Shown: positions 19,112-40,963 of the stretch, one piece after another | Layout: each line of letters begins with the position of its first letter | How positions within the stretch are numbered: position 1 is the first letter of the stretch | Assembly (NCBI GenBank): GCA_000146465.1 | Contig: CP001946.1 | Length of the DNA: 64,000 bases | Direction: 5' to 3' (one strand) | Program-made: the position numbers and the translations under genes | Notes under the pieces: generated by a model | What the model was told of the DNA's origin: nothing | The model's database searches: none | Seen by the model: only the letters and a program-made list of their open reading frames with translations

Positions 19112-19227
19112 GAGGTTCTGAGGGAGTGTTTTATAGAATAAAAGTCTTCTGTAGTCTTTTGAGTTTGTCCTTGGAAAAGGCAAAGGAGGGGAGTTTGGCC
19201 GTATGAGATTGGAAGGGGCTGAGGCCA

Positions 19228-19300
19228 GCCGCCATAGCTAAGTGGTTATAGCGCCAGTTTAGTAAACTGGAGGCCCCGAGTTCGAATCTCGGTGGTGGCT
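19228..19300 (+). tRNA. tRNA-Thr (anticodon AGT)
   Basis: Cloverleaf by hand: acceptor GCCGCCA/TGGTGGC, D-arm GCTA-AGTGGTTA-TAGC (A box), anticodon stem CCAGT/ACTGG with loop TTAGTAA, T-arm CCGAG-TTCGAAT-CTCGG (B box), discriminator T. No intron. Confidence 0.85.
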
Positions 19301-19310
19301 TTGTTTTTGT
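19301..19310 (+). terminator. Pol III T-run terminator after tRNA-Thr
   Basis: TTGTTTTTGT lies directly 3' of the tRNA. Confidence 0.5.
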
Positions 19311-21876: not shown

Positions 21877-22629
21877 TTATTTAATAAAACTTTTATCCTT
21901 TTGACTTTCTTCCCGGATGCTATCAATGCTTTTCCCATACCACTTGTCCATTGTACAGAATACCCTTTGCTGGACAGATGTTATAACGCTTCTCATGGCC
22001 TTTTCTATCTCTGCAGAAACCCACCCCATCATGTAATTGTTGATCTCCACTGTTAAATGCTTATAGGACACCATCATCGGCATTCCTCTATTCTTGTATG
22101 TTTCTATCCAATTTTCATCCAGCCTTCCACGGCCACTCTCCTCATGGTAATAAACAGAAGGATCAAAGATGGGATTGATTGGAGGGGAGTTTAGATCCAA
22201 TCTGATGCTTTCGACCCCACTGATGCGTGCAGGATCGTACTCAAACGGATTCTCAAGAATCTCTGCTCCATCCTTGTTAACTGTGTTGAAAACCATGTTG
22301 AATGTGTCATTGGAGAAGTATCTATTTCTGTAGAATGTATGGCATTTAGTGTAGGCATTGTATGAGATTTCCTCGACTATGCATGCATCCTCTGGAATAA
22401 GGCTGTGAAGCATACGCGGGAACCGGGATTTTAAGTACATGACTTTATGTGTTTTGCTGACCTTTCCAAGTGTCTCGTGCACAACACTTTCTGCTTTCAG
22501 GATCTCTACCTTCAAGCCCCCGGCATTTTCTGATTCGGTCATTGCTGTGACTGTATAGAAGTGGCCCACTGCATACTCGTCGGTGGTCATCGGAAGAACT
22601 GTTACATATATCTTCTCCACCTTGGCCAT
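21877..22629 (-). CDS. phosphatidylinositol transfer protein (PITP)
   Basis: 'KIYVTVLPMTTDEYAVGHFYTVTAMTESENAGG...VEIL' aligns with the PITP-alpha N-terminus; 'CHTFYRNRYFSNDTFNMVFNT' also matches. The upstream ATG at 22827 adds 66 low-complexity residues overlapping the helicase 3' end, so I chose M67. Confidence 0.8.
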   Translation of the reverse strand: MAKVEKIYVTVLPMTTDEYAVGHFYTVTAMTESENAGGLKVEILKAESVVHETLGKVSKTHKVMYLKSRFPRMLHSLIPEDACIVEEISYNAYTKCHTFYRNRYFSNDTFNMVFNTVNKDGAEILENPFEYDPARISGVESIRLDLNSPPINPIFDPSVYYHEESGRGRLDENWIETYKNRGMPMMVSYKHLTVEINNYMMGWVSAEIEKAMRSVITSVQQRVFCTMDKWYGKSIDSIREESQKDKSFIK

Positions 22630-22744
22630 TGTGTTCCGGAGTCTCCCTTTATTTATCATAGAAGCATCCAGCAGCATTATGAACTTGACAATTAAAATAA
22701 GCAAAAGGAGGTAGTCAGGATGACGTGAAATAGAAAGTTTTAAT

Positions 22745-34801: not shown

Positions 34802-35875
34802 ATGACTGGGAGCTCTGGGCACCTCGGCAAGGAGACAAAAGAAGATGAAGAGAAGGCCTGGGATTTTCTTTTGACGGATATGGATAAGATGATTGTAAAG
34901 ACAAATCATTACACACCACTTGGATGTGGAAGCATGCCCTTAAACAGGAAGATTGACGAGTACATTAAGTATGGGATAATCAATTTGGACAAGTCGTCCA
35001 ACCCAAGTTCGCACGAGGTTGTGACATGGGTAAAAGAGATTCTGAAGTGTGAGAAGACGGGGCATAGCGGAACACTGGACCCCCAAGTGAGTGGAGTTCT
35101 GACGGTCTGTATTGATCGAGCAACCCGCCTGACAAAAAGCCAGCAATCCCTAGGAAAAGAGTATGTGTGTGTGATTGAGTTTCTAGAGGAACCAAGTGAA
35201 GAAGGATTTCGTAAAGCAGCCGAAAGGCTTGTAGGGTCTTTGTTCCAAAGGCCTCCTTTGATGTGTGCAGTCAAAAGAGAACTAAGGATAAGGAACATCT
35301 ACAGTATCGACATTCTCGAGTTTAACAAAGAGAGAAGGCTTGGTCTCTTCAGGGTGTCGTGCGAAGCTGGGACTTACGTCCGAACCCTCTGCATGCATAT
35401 GGGGATACTAATGGGGTGTGGAGCCGTGATGAAAGGACTTCGAAGAACAAGAAGCGGGAGAATCTCTGAAAAAGATATCTTTACACTGCATGACCTACTT
35501 GATGGAGTACACATATTCAATTCCACAAAAGACGAAAGGGTGATCAGAAGGGTGATACGGCCTTTGGAAAGCCTTCTTGTGGGATATCCAAGGATCATGA
35601 TAAAAGACAGCTGTGTTAACGCCATATGTTATGGAGCAAAGTTGAGTATTACAGGAGTCCTCAGGTTTGACAGAAACATCGATGTTGGAATGGACATTGT
35701 GATTGTTACAACGAAGGGAGAAGCTGTTGCTCTTGGAATTGCTCTTGTCAGCAGCCCCGAGATGAGCATCATCGACCATGGGCTTGTATGCAGAACCAAA
35801 AGAGTTATTATGGAAAAAGATCTATATCCGAGGAGTTGGGGGTTTAAGAGCGAATATGAGATACTTAGTGAATAG
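34802..35875 (+). CDS. CBF5: H/ACA snoRNP pseudouridine synthase Cbf5/dyskerin
   Basis: 'INLDKSSNPSSHEVVTWVKEIL..EKTGHSGTLDPQVSGVLTVCIDRATRL' (TruB catalytic Asp), followed by a PUA domain. Confidence 0.9.
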   Translation: MTGSSGHLGKETKEDEEKAWDFLLTDMDKMIVKTNHYTPLGCGSMPLNRKIDEYIKYGIINLDKSSNPSSHEVVTWVKEILKCEKTGHSGTLDPQVSGVLTVCIDRATRLTKSQQSLGKEYVCVIEFLEEPSEEGFRKAAERLVGSLFQRPPLMCAVKRELRIRNIYSIDILEFNKERRLGLFRVSCEAGTYVRTLCMHMGILMGCGAVMKGLRRTRSGRISEKDIFTLHDLLDGVHIFNSTKDERVIRRVIRPLESLLVGYPRIMIKDSCVNAICYGAKLSITGVLRFDRNIDVGMDIVIVTTKGEAVALGIALVSSPEMSIIDHGLVCRTKRVIMEKDLYPRSWGFKSEYEILSE

Positions 35876-35959: not shown

Positions 35960-36760
35960 ATGCTTGAGCTGGAATTGGCAGCAAAAGAAAAAAGCAATGG
36001 GGGAGCAGCATCTGAGGTTTTGACACTGATGAAAAGGATGTTGGAAAGTCTGAATGAGATTGTAGAAACGGCAGATATAAAGGCTACAGAAAAAGGCCTT
36101 TCGATTCAGGTGATGGATGTGACGCATGTGGCCTTTGCAGATATTTTCTTGTCATCAACGATGTTTACGAAGTACCGGTGCGACAGGGATCTGGTGATTG
36201 GAGTCCAGCTCAAGACCTTTACGAAGATAATAAGAGGAATGAGTGTTGAAGGAGGGGGAATATTCAAGATGGAATGTGATGATGCCATCACCAACCTGAA
36301 TGTTAAGAACATCCGAGAAGGGAATGTTCTCAGCTTCAAGCTGAAGTTGTTTTCCTCTGATTCTGAGGTCTATAATATTCCTGACTTCGAATTTGATGTA
36401 TCTGCATCCATACCGGCAGATGAGTTTATGTACGTTCCTAGGCTTGTGGGTACATTTGGAGATGTTGTTGGGGTTCAGGCAGAGGGAAAGACTCTGATGT
36501 TCTTTCAGACCGGAGAACATGCGGATGCATCTATGAGCTTTGAAGAGTCACCGGGAAGGGAGGGGATAAAGATTGAGGCAAAAGAGCTCATAACCCAAGA
36601 GATTGCTATGAAATACGTTAACCTTATTAGCAAGGTTGTACCTCTTTATAAGGATGTGAAAATCTCTTTGGGAGTAGGAAAGCCTGTGTTTTTTGGGCTT
36701 TACCTGGACGGCACAGCCCATATGAAGCTCTATGTGGCACCCAAGTTCGAAAATGAATGA
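35960..36760 (+). CDS. PCNA: proliferating cell nuclear antigen
   Basis: 'YRCDRDLVIGVQL', 'LAPKFENE' C-terminus, and overall collinearity with PCNA. Confidence 0.9.
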   Translation: MLELELAAKEKSNGGAASEVLTLMKRMLESLNEIVETADIKATEKGLSIQVMDVTHVAFADIFLSSTMFTKYRCDRDLVIGVQLKTFTKIIRGMSVEGGGIFKMECDDAITNLNVKNIREGNVLSFKLKLFSSDSEVYNIPDFEFDVSASIPADEFMYVPRLVGTFGDVVGVQAEGKTLMFFQTGEHADASMSFEESPGREGIKIEAKELITQEIAMKYVNLISKVVPLYKDVKISLGVGKPVFFGLYLDGTAHMKLYVAPKFENE

Positions 36761-36841: not shown

Positions 36842-37573
36842 TTAGTCCCTATAGTAGTTTATGTAAATTATTGAAAGCAGCTTCTGATATAACTCTTCTC
36901 TACTTTTGAGCTTTTCCTCGGCCTTCTTGACCTCCGAAGCCATGTAGTTCCATTTGTCCCTCAGAACCCTCCACTCCACAGGGTTAGTGACCTCAAGGAC
37001 ATCAAGTAAATCAATCTTTTTTTTCTTGTTGAACGTCATATCCAACCAGAAACATACCATGTCCACTAGAACATGTATGTTAAGAACACTTGCTCTGTCT
37101 GGGTTCTCAACATAGTCATGATAGAAGAATGACACCTTTTGTAGATTAATGTAGTTTACGTCACTGTATACTTGGAATATCCCTCTAGGCCTGTATGGGT
37201 TACGCCCGGGGCCCTCAAAGATCCTTAAATAGGATGTATTATGAAGCACAGTAGCCGTCACGGCCGCTAATTCGTATTGCCTCGTGCTACAAAACTCATA
37301 AAGGAAGTTTAAAACCATTACAATGTATTCGCTTCTTTCTTTGGTTATTTGCATTCCTATCCTCTTGTATGCTGGAACACACATTCCAAAATACACCCTA
37401 TGAAGATATTCGCCTTGGGAAATCATCTTATTTTCATCACTCGGAGGATTCAGCTCTTTAAGCGGATTAACATAGTTCTCGTTTATATACACGTCGTATA
37501 AATGAGAGATGTACTTCGCATGTAATCCCCGAACTGCAAATACAAGAACACCTAGAAGCGGTAGTCTTTGCAT
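36842..37573 (-). CDS. secreted GH19 chitinase/lysozyme-like protein (candidate)
   Basis: N-terminal signal peptide. 'ELAAVTATVLHNTSY' aligns with GH19 'EIAAFLAQTSHETTGG', 'YRPRGIFQVYSDVNY' with 'YYGRGPIQLSWNYNY', and 'MVCFWLDMT' with 'ALWFWMT'. Confidence 0.45.
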   Translation of the reverse strand: MQRLPLLGVLVFAVRGLHAKYISHLYDVYINENYVNPLKELNPPSDENKMISQGEYLHRVYFGMCVPAYKRIGMQITKERSEYIVMVLNFLYEFCSTRQYELAAVTATVLHNTSYLRIFEGPGRNPYRPRGIFQVYSDVNYINLQKVSFFYHDYVENPDRASVLNIHVLVDMVCFWLDMTFNKKKKIDLLDVLEVTNPVEWRVLRDKWNYMASEVKKAEEKLKSREELYQKLLSIIYINYYRD

Positions 37574-37812
37574 AGGTGGCGATTTTAAGGTTTCTTAAAT
37601 ACTTTTCTAGAAATATTTAATACAATCGCAAATTTTCGACGTTAATTATCATTTCCAAGTGATACTCCGCGTGGAATTAATATACCTGAAAGTAATACTG
37701 GAATTTAATTTCAATCACTCTGTGATGTTTTAATTAACAGCACAAAGGATTTCTCTCAATCTTCTGGACTCACGTCAATCCTCGGGTTTGTGCAGCTAGG
37801 GCCTCTACATTG
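37574..37812. promoter_or_regulatory. long AT-rich divergent intergenic region
   Basis: 239 bp between head-to-head ATGs, against a 50-100 bp norm in this window. Contains the palindrome TTAATTAA and 'gggcctctacattgATG'. Confidence 0.4.
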
Positions 37813-39069
37813 ATGCAGACACATTATACATTAGAGCTTGCGTCGGAAAGCCTTATGGAAAGCGAGGATAACATGAAGGAATATACAATGATTTCGGGAA
37901 TGGTTAAGAACAGATACTACACAATTTATGGAGTGATAGTAGATTGGCTGGAGTGGAAAAGATGCCGAGGAGGAGATTACATGATGACCTTGGATCTGAT
38001 TGATGAATGTATGAAAAAATTATCTGTTAAGATTTTCAGTCCAAAGAAAATATTCTCTAAAGGATTCTGTGTTGGAGAGGTTGTAAAGATAAGGAACCTA
38101 AGGATTTACGATGCATGCAGGGCGGTGACTGATCGTAGCAATGACATTGAGGTGATATTCACGCCATACGAATCTCCCAGCGATGTTATTGCTCCTTTTC
38201 CAAAGCGGCTTATGGAGTTTTTTAATCAGAACAGGGAAATTTTTGTGAAAGAAAGGAAAATATCTGAAATAGAGGAGGGAAGGTATTTTGATTTCAACGG
38301 AGAGTTGATAGACAAACAGAAGGAAAGATGCAACTTAATTCTCCTTAGATTTGTAGATTATAGCAGAAACAAGCGGGTTCAGGGCCAAGACACCACCGAG
38401 AACTATCCAAAGGACATGGTTCTGATTGTGAAAGCATGGGGATGCTTTGCCATGGAAGCCGAGAAGTGCGAAATTGGGGGATGGTATAGACTTAGGAATC
38501 TGAAGGCAGACGAAGTGGGATATCGTTTGTATGCAAGTCTGTCTGAGTCAAGCAAGGGGAGCATTTCCAACATAGGAAGAGACACGACTCTCGGGAAGTA
38601 CTTCCAAACAAAAAAGGACAAGTACATGGAAGGTTTTGCACTCCGGCAAGGAGGAATGAAGGTTCCGGATGGAATTGCAAGATACAGACTGACTGAAATT
38701 AAGGACATACTTTTGCCAGGTGTGTACCGGATTAGGGTTTGTATAAAAAGATATATGCCATCTGGAGGAATGGAAGTGTTTTTCTGCAAAACCTGTGGAT
38801 CGGAAGACAGAGGAGTAGATGGAGATTGCAAATGTAGTATTCCCGAGATAAAGAAAATCAAGGTAGTAAAATTGCTGCTCTGGGATGGGAAACAGGAGAT
38901 AATAGCTGTATGCCGAAACAAGCTTGTAGAACATATATTTATCAAGGAAAACGATGGATATCTAAGCAGAAGAATGTTTGATTGCATGATTCTGAACGTT
39001 AGGGGTGTGGAGGGAATGGTCTACCATCTTATTGATCTTGGCTTTTTTGAAGTCGAAAAGGAAGGTTGA
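37813..39069 (+). CDS. OB-fold protein, POT1-like telomere end-binding candidate (alternative: RPA-like)
   Basis: N-terminal 'YYTIYGVIVDWLEW..GGDYMMTLDLIDE...KLSVKIFSPKK...GEVVKIRNLRIY' has the POT1 OB1 pattern. C-terminal 'VYRIRVCIKRYMP...FFCKTCGSEDRGVDGDCKCS' resembles the POT1 C-terminal zinc region. The track start is TTG; the ATG is the next codon. Confidence 0.45.
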   Translation: MQTHYTLELASESLMESEDNMKEYTMISGMVKNRYYTIYGVIVDWLEWKRCRGGDYMMTLDLIDECMKKLSVKIFSPKKIFSKGFCVGEVVKIRNLRIYDACRAVTDRSNDIEVIFTPYESPSDVIAPFPKRLMEFFNQNREIFVKERKISEIEEGRYFDFNGELIDKQKERCNLILLRFVDYSRNKRVQGQDTTENYPKDMVLIVKAWGCFAMEAEKCEIGGWYRLRNLKADEVGYRLYASLSESSKGSISNIGRDTTLGKYFQTKKDKYMEGFALRQGGMKVPDGIARYRLTEIKDILLPGVYRIRVCIKRYMPSGGMEVFFCKTCGSEDRGVDGDCKCSIPEIKKIKVVKLLLWDGKQEIIAVCRNKLVEHIFIKENDGYLSRRMFDCMILNVRGVEGMVYHLIDLGFFEVEKEG

Positions 39070-40699: not shown

Positions 40700-40963
40700 A
40701 TGATTATTGCAGATCTAGACAGAATATCTATCAGCTCGGAGACAAGGCCAAGACAGCAGCATATAGAGGAAGCAAGAAAAATAGTGAAAGCAAACTCGAA
40801 ATACAGGGGAGATCCTGGATATAAGCACTTCCTTGACGAGACAGTCAAAGGTCTTTGCAAAGGATGTAGCAACGAAGACATTTTCCATGTGATCCGATCT
40901 TTGCAGAGGATGATAAGGCCTAAAGCTAGGATCCTTGGAGAGGATTTGTATTACAGAAAATAA
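40700..40963 (+). CDS. small hypothetical protein (87 aa)
   Basis: ATG in 'ttttaaaCCCatATG' context. Charged, non-repetitive. I prefer it over the antisense ORF at 40715..40975. Confidence 0.4.
   Translation: MIIADLDRISISSETRPRQQHIEEARKIVKANSKYRGDPGYKHFLDETVKGLCKGCSNEDIFHVIRSLQRMIRPKARILGEDLYYRK

Follow-up and report, generated by a model that had tools for sequence, protein, structure and literature searches.

A probable compact POT1 orthologue of Encephalitozoon intestinalis with three predicted OB folds

What does the open reading frame (ORF) at positions 37813-39069 of this 64,000-nt stretch of contig CP001946.1 (assembly GCA_000146465.1; the whole stretch is hereafter called the window) encode, and does its product act at telomeres? 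Working from the letters of the DNA alone, the original prediction read the ORF as a candidate POT1-like telomere end-binding protein of a reduced eukaryotic genome, with an RPA70-like protein as the alternative. In the current analysis we conclude, with a probability of roughly 0.86, that Encephalitozoon intestinalis encodes in this ORF its single-copy orthologue of POT1 (protection of telomeres 1), which is compact at about 404 amino acids (aa), has three OB folds and works by the mechanism proposed below.

The gene assignment itself adds nothing new. It is already public in GenBank, in UniProt and in the 2023 telomere-to-telomere study of Encephalitozoon, in each case on purely computational grounds. 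Table 1 of that study (Mascarenhas dos Santos et al. 2023, BMC Genomics 24:237; PMC10158259) has "Protection of telomeres protein 1 (Pot1)", with the entries GPK93_05g08160 for E. intestinalis, GPU96_05g09440 for E. hellem and J0A71_08g17880 for E. cuniculi, and gives Tpz1, Stn1, Ten1 and TERT beside it. According to its supplement, GPK93_05g08160 was without an InterProScan Pfam match and was assigned via structural comparison to 3KJO_A (PMC10158259). A literature search by locus tags found no experimental work on the Pot1 gene. The earlier statement that telomere end-protection factors have hardly been characterised in microsporidia goes too far, since the gene had already been annotated and published as Pot1 on computational evidence, and the suggestion that a compact POT1 would be new biology does not hold, given both the UniRef name of the protein and the Pot1 listing (PMC10158259). 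Mildly new are a predicted zinc ribbon without the HJRL insert, the sequence affinity of the third OB fold to OB-G of CTC1, and a conserved TTAAT-rich spacer upstream of the gene.

Coding sequence, start codon and family

The coding sequence and its start are as follows.
37813..39069, + strand: POT1 coding sequence, 418 aa plus stop, ATG start; corresponds to Eint_051090 / GPK93_05g08160 of Encephalitozoon intestinalis
37855..37857, + strand: probable true start codon, M15 of the 418-aa ORF, yielding the deposited 404-aa protein

The ORF is real, and every motif quoted in the original prediction was located in its 418-aa product, the numbering of which is used here unless stated otherwise: YTIYGVIV at residues 36-43, MMTLDLIDE at 57-65, KLSVKIFSPKK at 69-79, GEVVKIRNLRIY at 88-99, VYRIRVCIKRYMP at 304-316, CKTC at 325-328 and CKC at 339-341. 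BLASTP showed 100% identity (404/404) between residues 15-418 and Eint_051090 of E. intestinalis ATCC 50506. An exact look-up of the 418-aa product gave no entry, as the databases have the 404-aa form. By UniRef look-up, Eint_051090 (ADM11556.1, 404 aa) was found in a 100%-identical cluster and is named POT1/Cdc13 domain protein; the cluster of the E. hellem orthologue bears the name "Protection of telomeres protein 1". The nearest relatives are the proteins of E. cuniculi, E. romaleae and E. hellem, with 62-65% identity, followed by that of Ordospora with 36%. Translation probably starts at M15 (nt 37855) rather than at the first ATG (37813), because the deposited E. intestinalis protein and three annotated Encephalitozoon orthologues begin there; the first residue of the E. 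cuniculi, E. romaleae and E. hellem proteins aligns with M15. The 14 residues ahead of M15 are unconserved, and ORF residues 1-21 had a predicted local distance difference test score (pLDDT) below 50 in a first AlphaFold model built from eight sequences.

Two Pfam families were matched by the window protein in the correct order, namely PF02765 (POT1) at residues 32-97 (E=1.1e-5, 25.7 bits) and PF16686 (POT1PC) at residues 150-197 (E=2.5e-4, 21.4 bits). The same two families occur in this order in 8/8 close orthologues, with a best PF02765 E-value of 7.9e-9, and a precomputed PF02765 match is present in 6/7 orthologues, the exception being a truncated 361-aa copy of the same E. intestinalis protein. 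In a wider family of 51 sequences, PF02765 was matched by 33 members (best 6e-20) and PF16686 by 37 (best 2.8e-16). None of the RPA families of Pfam (REPA_OB_2, Rep_fac-A_C, Rep-A_N) matched the window protein at E<=10; REPA_OB_2 matched 1/51 family members, a distant one.

Profile searches led to the same family. Against the Protein Data Bank (PDB), an 8-sequence profile placed human POT1 first (E=9e-4), covering OB1 and a second stretch in which PGVYRIRV.IKRY.P....C..C aligned to the human POT1 strand ending in CPKC. Against 1.84 billion representative proteins it gave 90 matches. Those looked up included proteins of Hamiltosporidium, Spraguea, Pancytospora, Conglomerata and Cokeromyces recurvatus, an oomycete POT1-domain protein and, at about 3e-6, fish proteins that bear the name "protection of telomeres protein 1". 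No further sequences came from a second homologue search, word-indexed, that started from the 8-sequence alignment. When a 51-sequence profile was compared with the PDB, human POT1 was matched over residues 7-394 at E=1.3e-23, S. pombe Pot1 at 1.5e-12 and S. pombe Pot1pC at 5e-9; RPA70 (2.6e-3), CTC1 (5e-3) and archaeal RPA (0.0097) were far weaker. The 8-sequence profile gave the same top matches independently, but more weakly.

Three predicted OB folds and a proposed mechanism

The following features were placed on a structure model of the protein.
37915..38160, + strand: OB1, POT1/Cdc13-type, predicted to be of the telomeric single-stranded DNA-binding class; residues 35-116; PF02765; pLDDT about 95
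38194..38244, + strand: helix joining OB1 to OB2; residues 128-144 (H114-130 in 404-aa numbering)
38284..38574, + strand: OB2, POT1PC-type, second half of the predicted DNA-binding domain; residues 158-254
38587..38655, + strand: long helix between OB2 and OB3; residues 259-281 (H245-267 in 404-aa numbering)
38719..39036, + strand: OB3, presumed partner-binding fold (Tpz1/TPP1); residues 303-408; without HJRL insert and without C-terminal helix

The AlphaFold model from the 51-sequence alignment (pLDDT 90.9, predicted template modelling score 0.78) has three beta-barrel domains which, in 404-aa numbering, span residues 21-102 (OB1), 144-240 (OB2) and 289-394 (OB3). It superseded the model from eight sequences, which was discarded (pLDDT 52.6, with OB2 below 50). 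The strands of OB1 are E21-36, 42-49, 55-62, 76-86, 89-92 and 98-102 in the same numbering, and after the last strand of OB3, E387-394, the model has only coil and no C-terminal helix. The N-terminal strings that had been read as OB-fold-like indeed sit on beta-strands 1-4 of OB1, and VYRIRVCIKRYMP falls on strand 1 of the third OB fold. In a Foldseek search of the PDB, the top match was full-length human POT1 (8sok_D, 7.8e-21), followed by Oxytricha TEBP-alpha (5e-17), the human POT1 DNA-binding domain (about 4e-16), S. pombe Pot1 (4.7e-15) and RPA70 (2e-14 and 7e-14). In a second fold search, OB2 superposed on S. pombe Pot1pC at 1.9 A. Pfam, profile and fold searches thus assign the protein to POT1/TEBP-alpha and not to RPA1, in agreement with the original prediction.

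These data bear directly on the alternative that the protein is a divergent RPA70-like paralogue, that is, a general single-stranded DNA-binding protein whose C-terminal OB fold would be the zinc-ribbon DBD-C of RPA70. A zinc ribbon is predicted, as described below, in the loop that carries it in the DBD-C class, and RPA70 and archaeal RPA are among the weak profile matches. However, no RPA family of Pfam was matched, the E-value of POT1 in the 51-sequence profile search of the PDB is about 20 orders of magnitude lower than that of RPA70, POT1 stands above RPA70 in both fold searches, and OB2 fits S. pombe Pot1pC closely. RPA-type trimer cores use a helix after the last OB strand, which contributes to a trimerisation bundle; the model has no such helix and has three OB folds rather than four. 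Membership of the whole protein in RPA70 was rejected on the Pfam result, on the profile E-values for RPA70 and POT1 and on the missing helix, and we regard an RPA70-like role as the least probable of the alternatives considered here.

Within OB1, a single residue stands out. F75 (nt 38035-38037; F61 in the 404-aa form) is the sole invariant column of the 51-sequence alignment and, in the 51-sequence profile comparison with the PDB, aligns with F62 of human POT1, a residue that is stacked against a base of telomeric DNA and sensitive to replacement by alanine (PMC11960693). We propose that OB1 and OB2 would jointly clamp the single-stranded G-rich 3' overhang, the telomere repeat of Encephalitozoon being TTAGG (PMC10158259), through aromatic stacking by F75, with W45 and W48 nearby, and through basic residues of the loop that joins strands 1 and 2. 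With the chromosome end hidden in this way, checkpoint and repair factors would not detect it, and the access of telomerase would be controlled. OB3 would bind a Tpz1/TPP1-like partner encoded elsewhere in the genome, and a small zinc ribbon, at the place of the zinc-bridged HJRL insert of vertebrates, may stiffen it. The published Tpz1 candidate is GPK93_11g20990 on chromosome 11, outside the window (PMC10158259).

It is conceivable that only the POT1 fold has been kept, as a relic, and that the protein now binds nucleic acids in a non-telomeric role in the reduced genome. The low identity to characterised POT1 proteins (11-16% in structural alignments) would fit such a change. In contrast, the family is kept across many microsporidian genera, synteny is conserved within the Encephalitozoon/Ordospora clade, the F62-equivalent residue is invariant, and the same genomes still encode TERT, Tpz1, Stn1 and Ten1 and have canonical TTAGG telomeres (PMC10158259). 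We therefore consider a loss of the telomeric role highly improbable.

Comparison with known POT1 proteins helps to place the protein. Human POT1 (PDB 1XJV, 8SH0, 5H65/5UN7, 7S1O, 8SOK) has the same OB1-OB2-OB3 order, the F62 equivalent, a CxxC pair (C382/C385) and a conserved YRIR..Y.P strand ahead of that pair. Unlike the protein described here (404-418 aa), it comprises 634 aa and contains an HJRL domain (residues 393-538; PMC5394241); identity between the two in structural alignment is only 11-21%, and the human repeat is TTAGGG vs. TTAGG here. S. pombe Pot1 (PDB 7CUH, 4HID, 1QZG) is similar in that its OB3 is without the HJRL insert (PMC9333443) and in that a counterpart of its partner Tpz1 has been reported from Encephalitozoon (PMC10158259). 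It differs in that zinc is not mentioned in the paper describing its OB3 (PMC9333443), in that this OB3 was not retrieved by the 51-sequence or the OB3-only profile, and in that the S. pombe protein binds degenerate repeats through separable OB1 and OB2. TEBP-alpha of Oxytricha nova (PDB 2I0Q, 1OTC, 1JB7) has three OB folds and no HJRL, and was the second-best family in the Foldseek search over its full length, but its sequence signal is negligible (E=0.22 with the 51-sequence profile) and it heterodimerises with TEBP-beta on T4G4 repeats. We know of no zinc ribbon in TEBP-alpha.

OB3 and its cysteine cluster

The third OB fold carries the following feature.
38785..38835, + strand: cysteine cluster C325-x2-C328-x10-C339-x-C341, probable zinc ribbon, in the loop between OB3 strands 1 and 2

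A C-x2-C ... C-x-C cluster after VYRIRVCIKRYMP had been noted in the original prediction and is present; its distance from the end of VYRIRVCIKRYMP is 9 residues, with 8 intervening, and not 13 as then given. The human POT1 segment with which this region had been compared was given accurately, as a query carrying it was 100% identical to residues 320-634 of PDB chain 7qxb_P, and the likeness was borne out by HMMER, which aligned the segment to PGVYRIRV..RY.P....C..C of the window protein. C325 and C328 are invariant in a 25-sequence OB3 alignment and align with human POT1 C382/C385 in both the 8- and the 51-sequence profiles. Wherever family members have the loop, the CxxC is invariant, and C341 is kept in 26 of the 27 sequences aligned at its column. 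In human POT1 the zinc ligands are C382, C385, C503 and C506 (PMC11960693), and the zinc sits between OB3 and the HJRL domain inserted in it (PMC5394241). Judged from these alignments, the cluster is a probable zinc ribbon. The gap between the two cysteine pairs is 10 residues vs. 117 in human POT1, which indicates that the HJRL insert (146 residues in vertebrates) is absent.

The cluster varies among relatives. It is entirely lacking in many of the more distant microsporidian POT1 homologues among P0031-P0057 of alignment A2. In Cokeromyces recurvatus, a mucoralean fungus (P0062), a CxxC-x10-CxxC occurs at the same place, without HJRL, which means that the compact ribbon is not peculiar to microsporidia. 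The predicted zinc ribbon is accordingly variably retained across POT1 homologues and not specific to microsporidia.

Several observations weigh against an assignment to POT1, and some of them concern OB3. A vertebrate-type HJRL domain is absent from it, and an OB3-only profile (25 sequences) retrieved CTC1 OB-G rather than POT1 OB3 from the PDB; under this profile human POT1C minus HJRL scored 15 bits vs. 30 for the CTC1 fragment. As for the whole protein, its Pfam matches lie under the gathering scores (25.7 vs. 29 bits for PF02765, 21.4 vs. 27.2 for PF16686), with which the published lack of an InterProScan Pfam match agrees. A single-sequence phmmer search of the PDB gave no match, and the 51-sequence alignment behind both the model and the strongest profile includes distant members that may dominate its signal.

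The OB3-only result raises the alternative that the protein combines a POT1-type DNA-binding domain with the role of a CST-like large subunit, its zinc-ribbon OB3 docking on Stn1-Ten1 and thus filling the place of Cdc13/CTC1. The best PDB match of the OB3-only profile was human CTC1 OB-G residues 1033-1092 (E=7.4e-5), and the alignment (window 38785-38940) runs beyond the cysteines through the next two strands (LLVED..E.VV.C.N), with twice the bit score of HJRL-less human POT1C; it is the cysteine-cluster region that drives this match. Moreover, Stn1 and Ten1, which in E. intestinalis are GPK93_03g04440 and GPK93_08g14420, are among the telomere proteins reported for Encephalitozoon, but Cdc13/CTC1 is not (PMC10158259). 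Against this, strand 1 and the CxxC of OB3 align with human POT1 residues 341-390 in the 8- and 51-sequence profiles, the model is without a helix after its last strand, and a Tpz1 candidate has been reported in the same genomes (PMC10158259). A shared zinc-ribbon OB ancestry would, in addition, explain the similarity without a shared partner. To our knowledge S. pombe has no recognised CTC1 and yet uses Pot1-Tpz1, which likewise counts against a CST-like role. On balance, we consider such a role improbable.

Nor does the likeness to CTC1 OB-G move the protein out of POT1, since its two N-terminal OB folds are unambiguously POT1-type and no RPA-type helix follows the last strand. CTC1 OB-G and RPA70 DBD-C (PDB 6W6W, 8D0B, 4GOP) share with it an uninterrupted CxxC...C.C ribbon in the same OB loop, and the strands that follow match CTC1 1033-1092. 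However, CTC1 and RPA70 have seven and four OB folds and bind Stn1 and RPA32, respectively, and no CTC1 or RPA family of Pfam is significant here. Pfam CTC1 (PF15489) matched only 1/25 OB3 segments (E=0.24), and the OB-G likeness is limited to one domain. Membership of the whole protein in CTC1/Cdc13 was rejected on its size (404-418 aa) and its three OB folds. The alternative of an RPA70-like DBD-C, which the original prediction had allowed for, is wrong for the protein as a whole, but OB3 taken alone is nearest by sequence to a member of the DBD-C-like class, CTC1 OB-G.

A cysteine cluster of the zinc-ribbon type is common to POT1 OB3, CTC1 OB-G and the C-terminal OB of RPA70 and does not discriminate among them. 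The sequence comparisons suggest that a common zinc-ribbon OB ancestor underlies POT1 OB3, CTC1 OB-G and RPA70 DBD-C, with the uninterrupted form kept in the microsporidian protein. One could go further and propose that the uninterrupted zinc-ribbon OB3 is the ancestral form of the POT1 C-terminus, into which HJRL was inserted later in vertebrates, and that OB3 might contact Stn1-Ten1 besides or instead of Tpz1. We regard this extension as improbable. If it were true of microsporidia, from which CTC1/Cdc13 has not been reported, a single three-OB protein would bind the overhang for shelterin and for CST alike.

At about 404 aa the protein is among the most compact POT1 proteins, and a high-confidence three-OB model of it is now at hand. 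With its predicted zinc site kept and the HJRL insert absent, it is a convenient minimal system for the role of the OB3 zinc ribbon and is useful for the relation of POT1 OB3 to CTC1 OB-G and RPA70 DBD-C.

Upstream spacer and gene neighbourhood

The following features lie upstream of POT1 or correspond to its spacer.
37574..37812, no strand: divergent intergenic spacer, presumed shared promoter, AT-rich with a TTAAT cluster, between a 243-aa minus-strand gene and POT1
L001:3222-3500, L002:3278-3500, L004:3231-3500, L005:3234-3500, L006:3235-3500: spacer counterparts in relatives
34802-35875, + strand: Cbf5/dyskerin (DKCLD-TruB-PUA), just upstream of POT1, in conserved synteny
35960-36760, + strand: PCNA, just upstream of POT1, in conserved synteny

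Counted from the first ATG, the spacer measures 239 bp; counted from the annotated start (to 37854), it measures 281 bp. The original prediction had called its 239 bp unusually long, a fair description, as only one of the 11 divergent gaps in the window is longer. Its length is 223-281 bp in six species, compared with a median of 72 bp for the divergent gaps in the window. Conserved AT-rich blocks within it (alignment A4) are ATTTAATA, TACCTGAAAG, TTTAATTTCAATCA and TTTTAATTAATG, and its seven TTAAT/ATTAA pentamers make it the densest 239-bp stretch for this motif in the 64 kb. An RNA gene or a small ORF in the spacer was rejected, as Rfam gave no match at E<=1, the consensus fold reached only -0.23 kcal/mol and no ORF of at least 30 aa was found. 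The spacer is most simply explained as a shared promoter with putative clustered binding sites. It is speculation that the TTAAT cluster is bound by a factor recognising TAAT, for example a homeodomain protein.

Gene order in this part of the window is WD40 protein, Cbf5/dyskerin, PCNA, 243-aa protein (-), POT1, Rpb4 (-), RIO1 kinase, 87-aa ORF and Rpn5/PSMD12 (-). It is kept in E. cuniculi, E. romaleae, E. hellem, another Encephalitozoon-like assembly and Ordospora colligata, and such conservation across the clade fits a housekeeping orthologue. Dyskerin is a telomerase subunit in vertebrates; in a genome this dense in genes, its position next to POT1 is probably fortuitous. The published annotation places Mre11/Rad32, sought here as a synteny anchor, 29 locus tags away from Pot1; it was absent from the ten window ORFs scanned.

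The 243-aa ORF divergent from POT1 (36842-37573, - strand) has a hydrophobic, signal-peptide-like N-terminus (MQRLPLLGVLVFAVRGLHA) and no Pfam match; its position is conserved, with lengths of 243-276 aa, at all Encephalitozoon and Ordospora loci examined. For the small ORF listed below, between RIO1 and Rpn5, the records of E. intestinalis, E. cuniculi, E. hellem, Ordospora and the other Encephalitozoon-like assembly have a gene call of 87-95 aa, but that of E. romaleae has none. Elsewhere in the window, 21877-22744 (868 bp) is the longest gap without an ORF of at least 90 aa, and a single tRNA gene is present.
40700-40963, + strand: 87-aa ORF between RIO1 and Rpn5, no Pfam family
19227-19301, + strand: tRNA-Thr(AGT), the sole tRNA in the window

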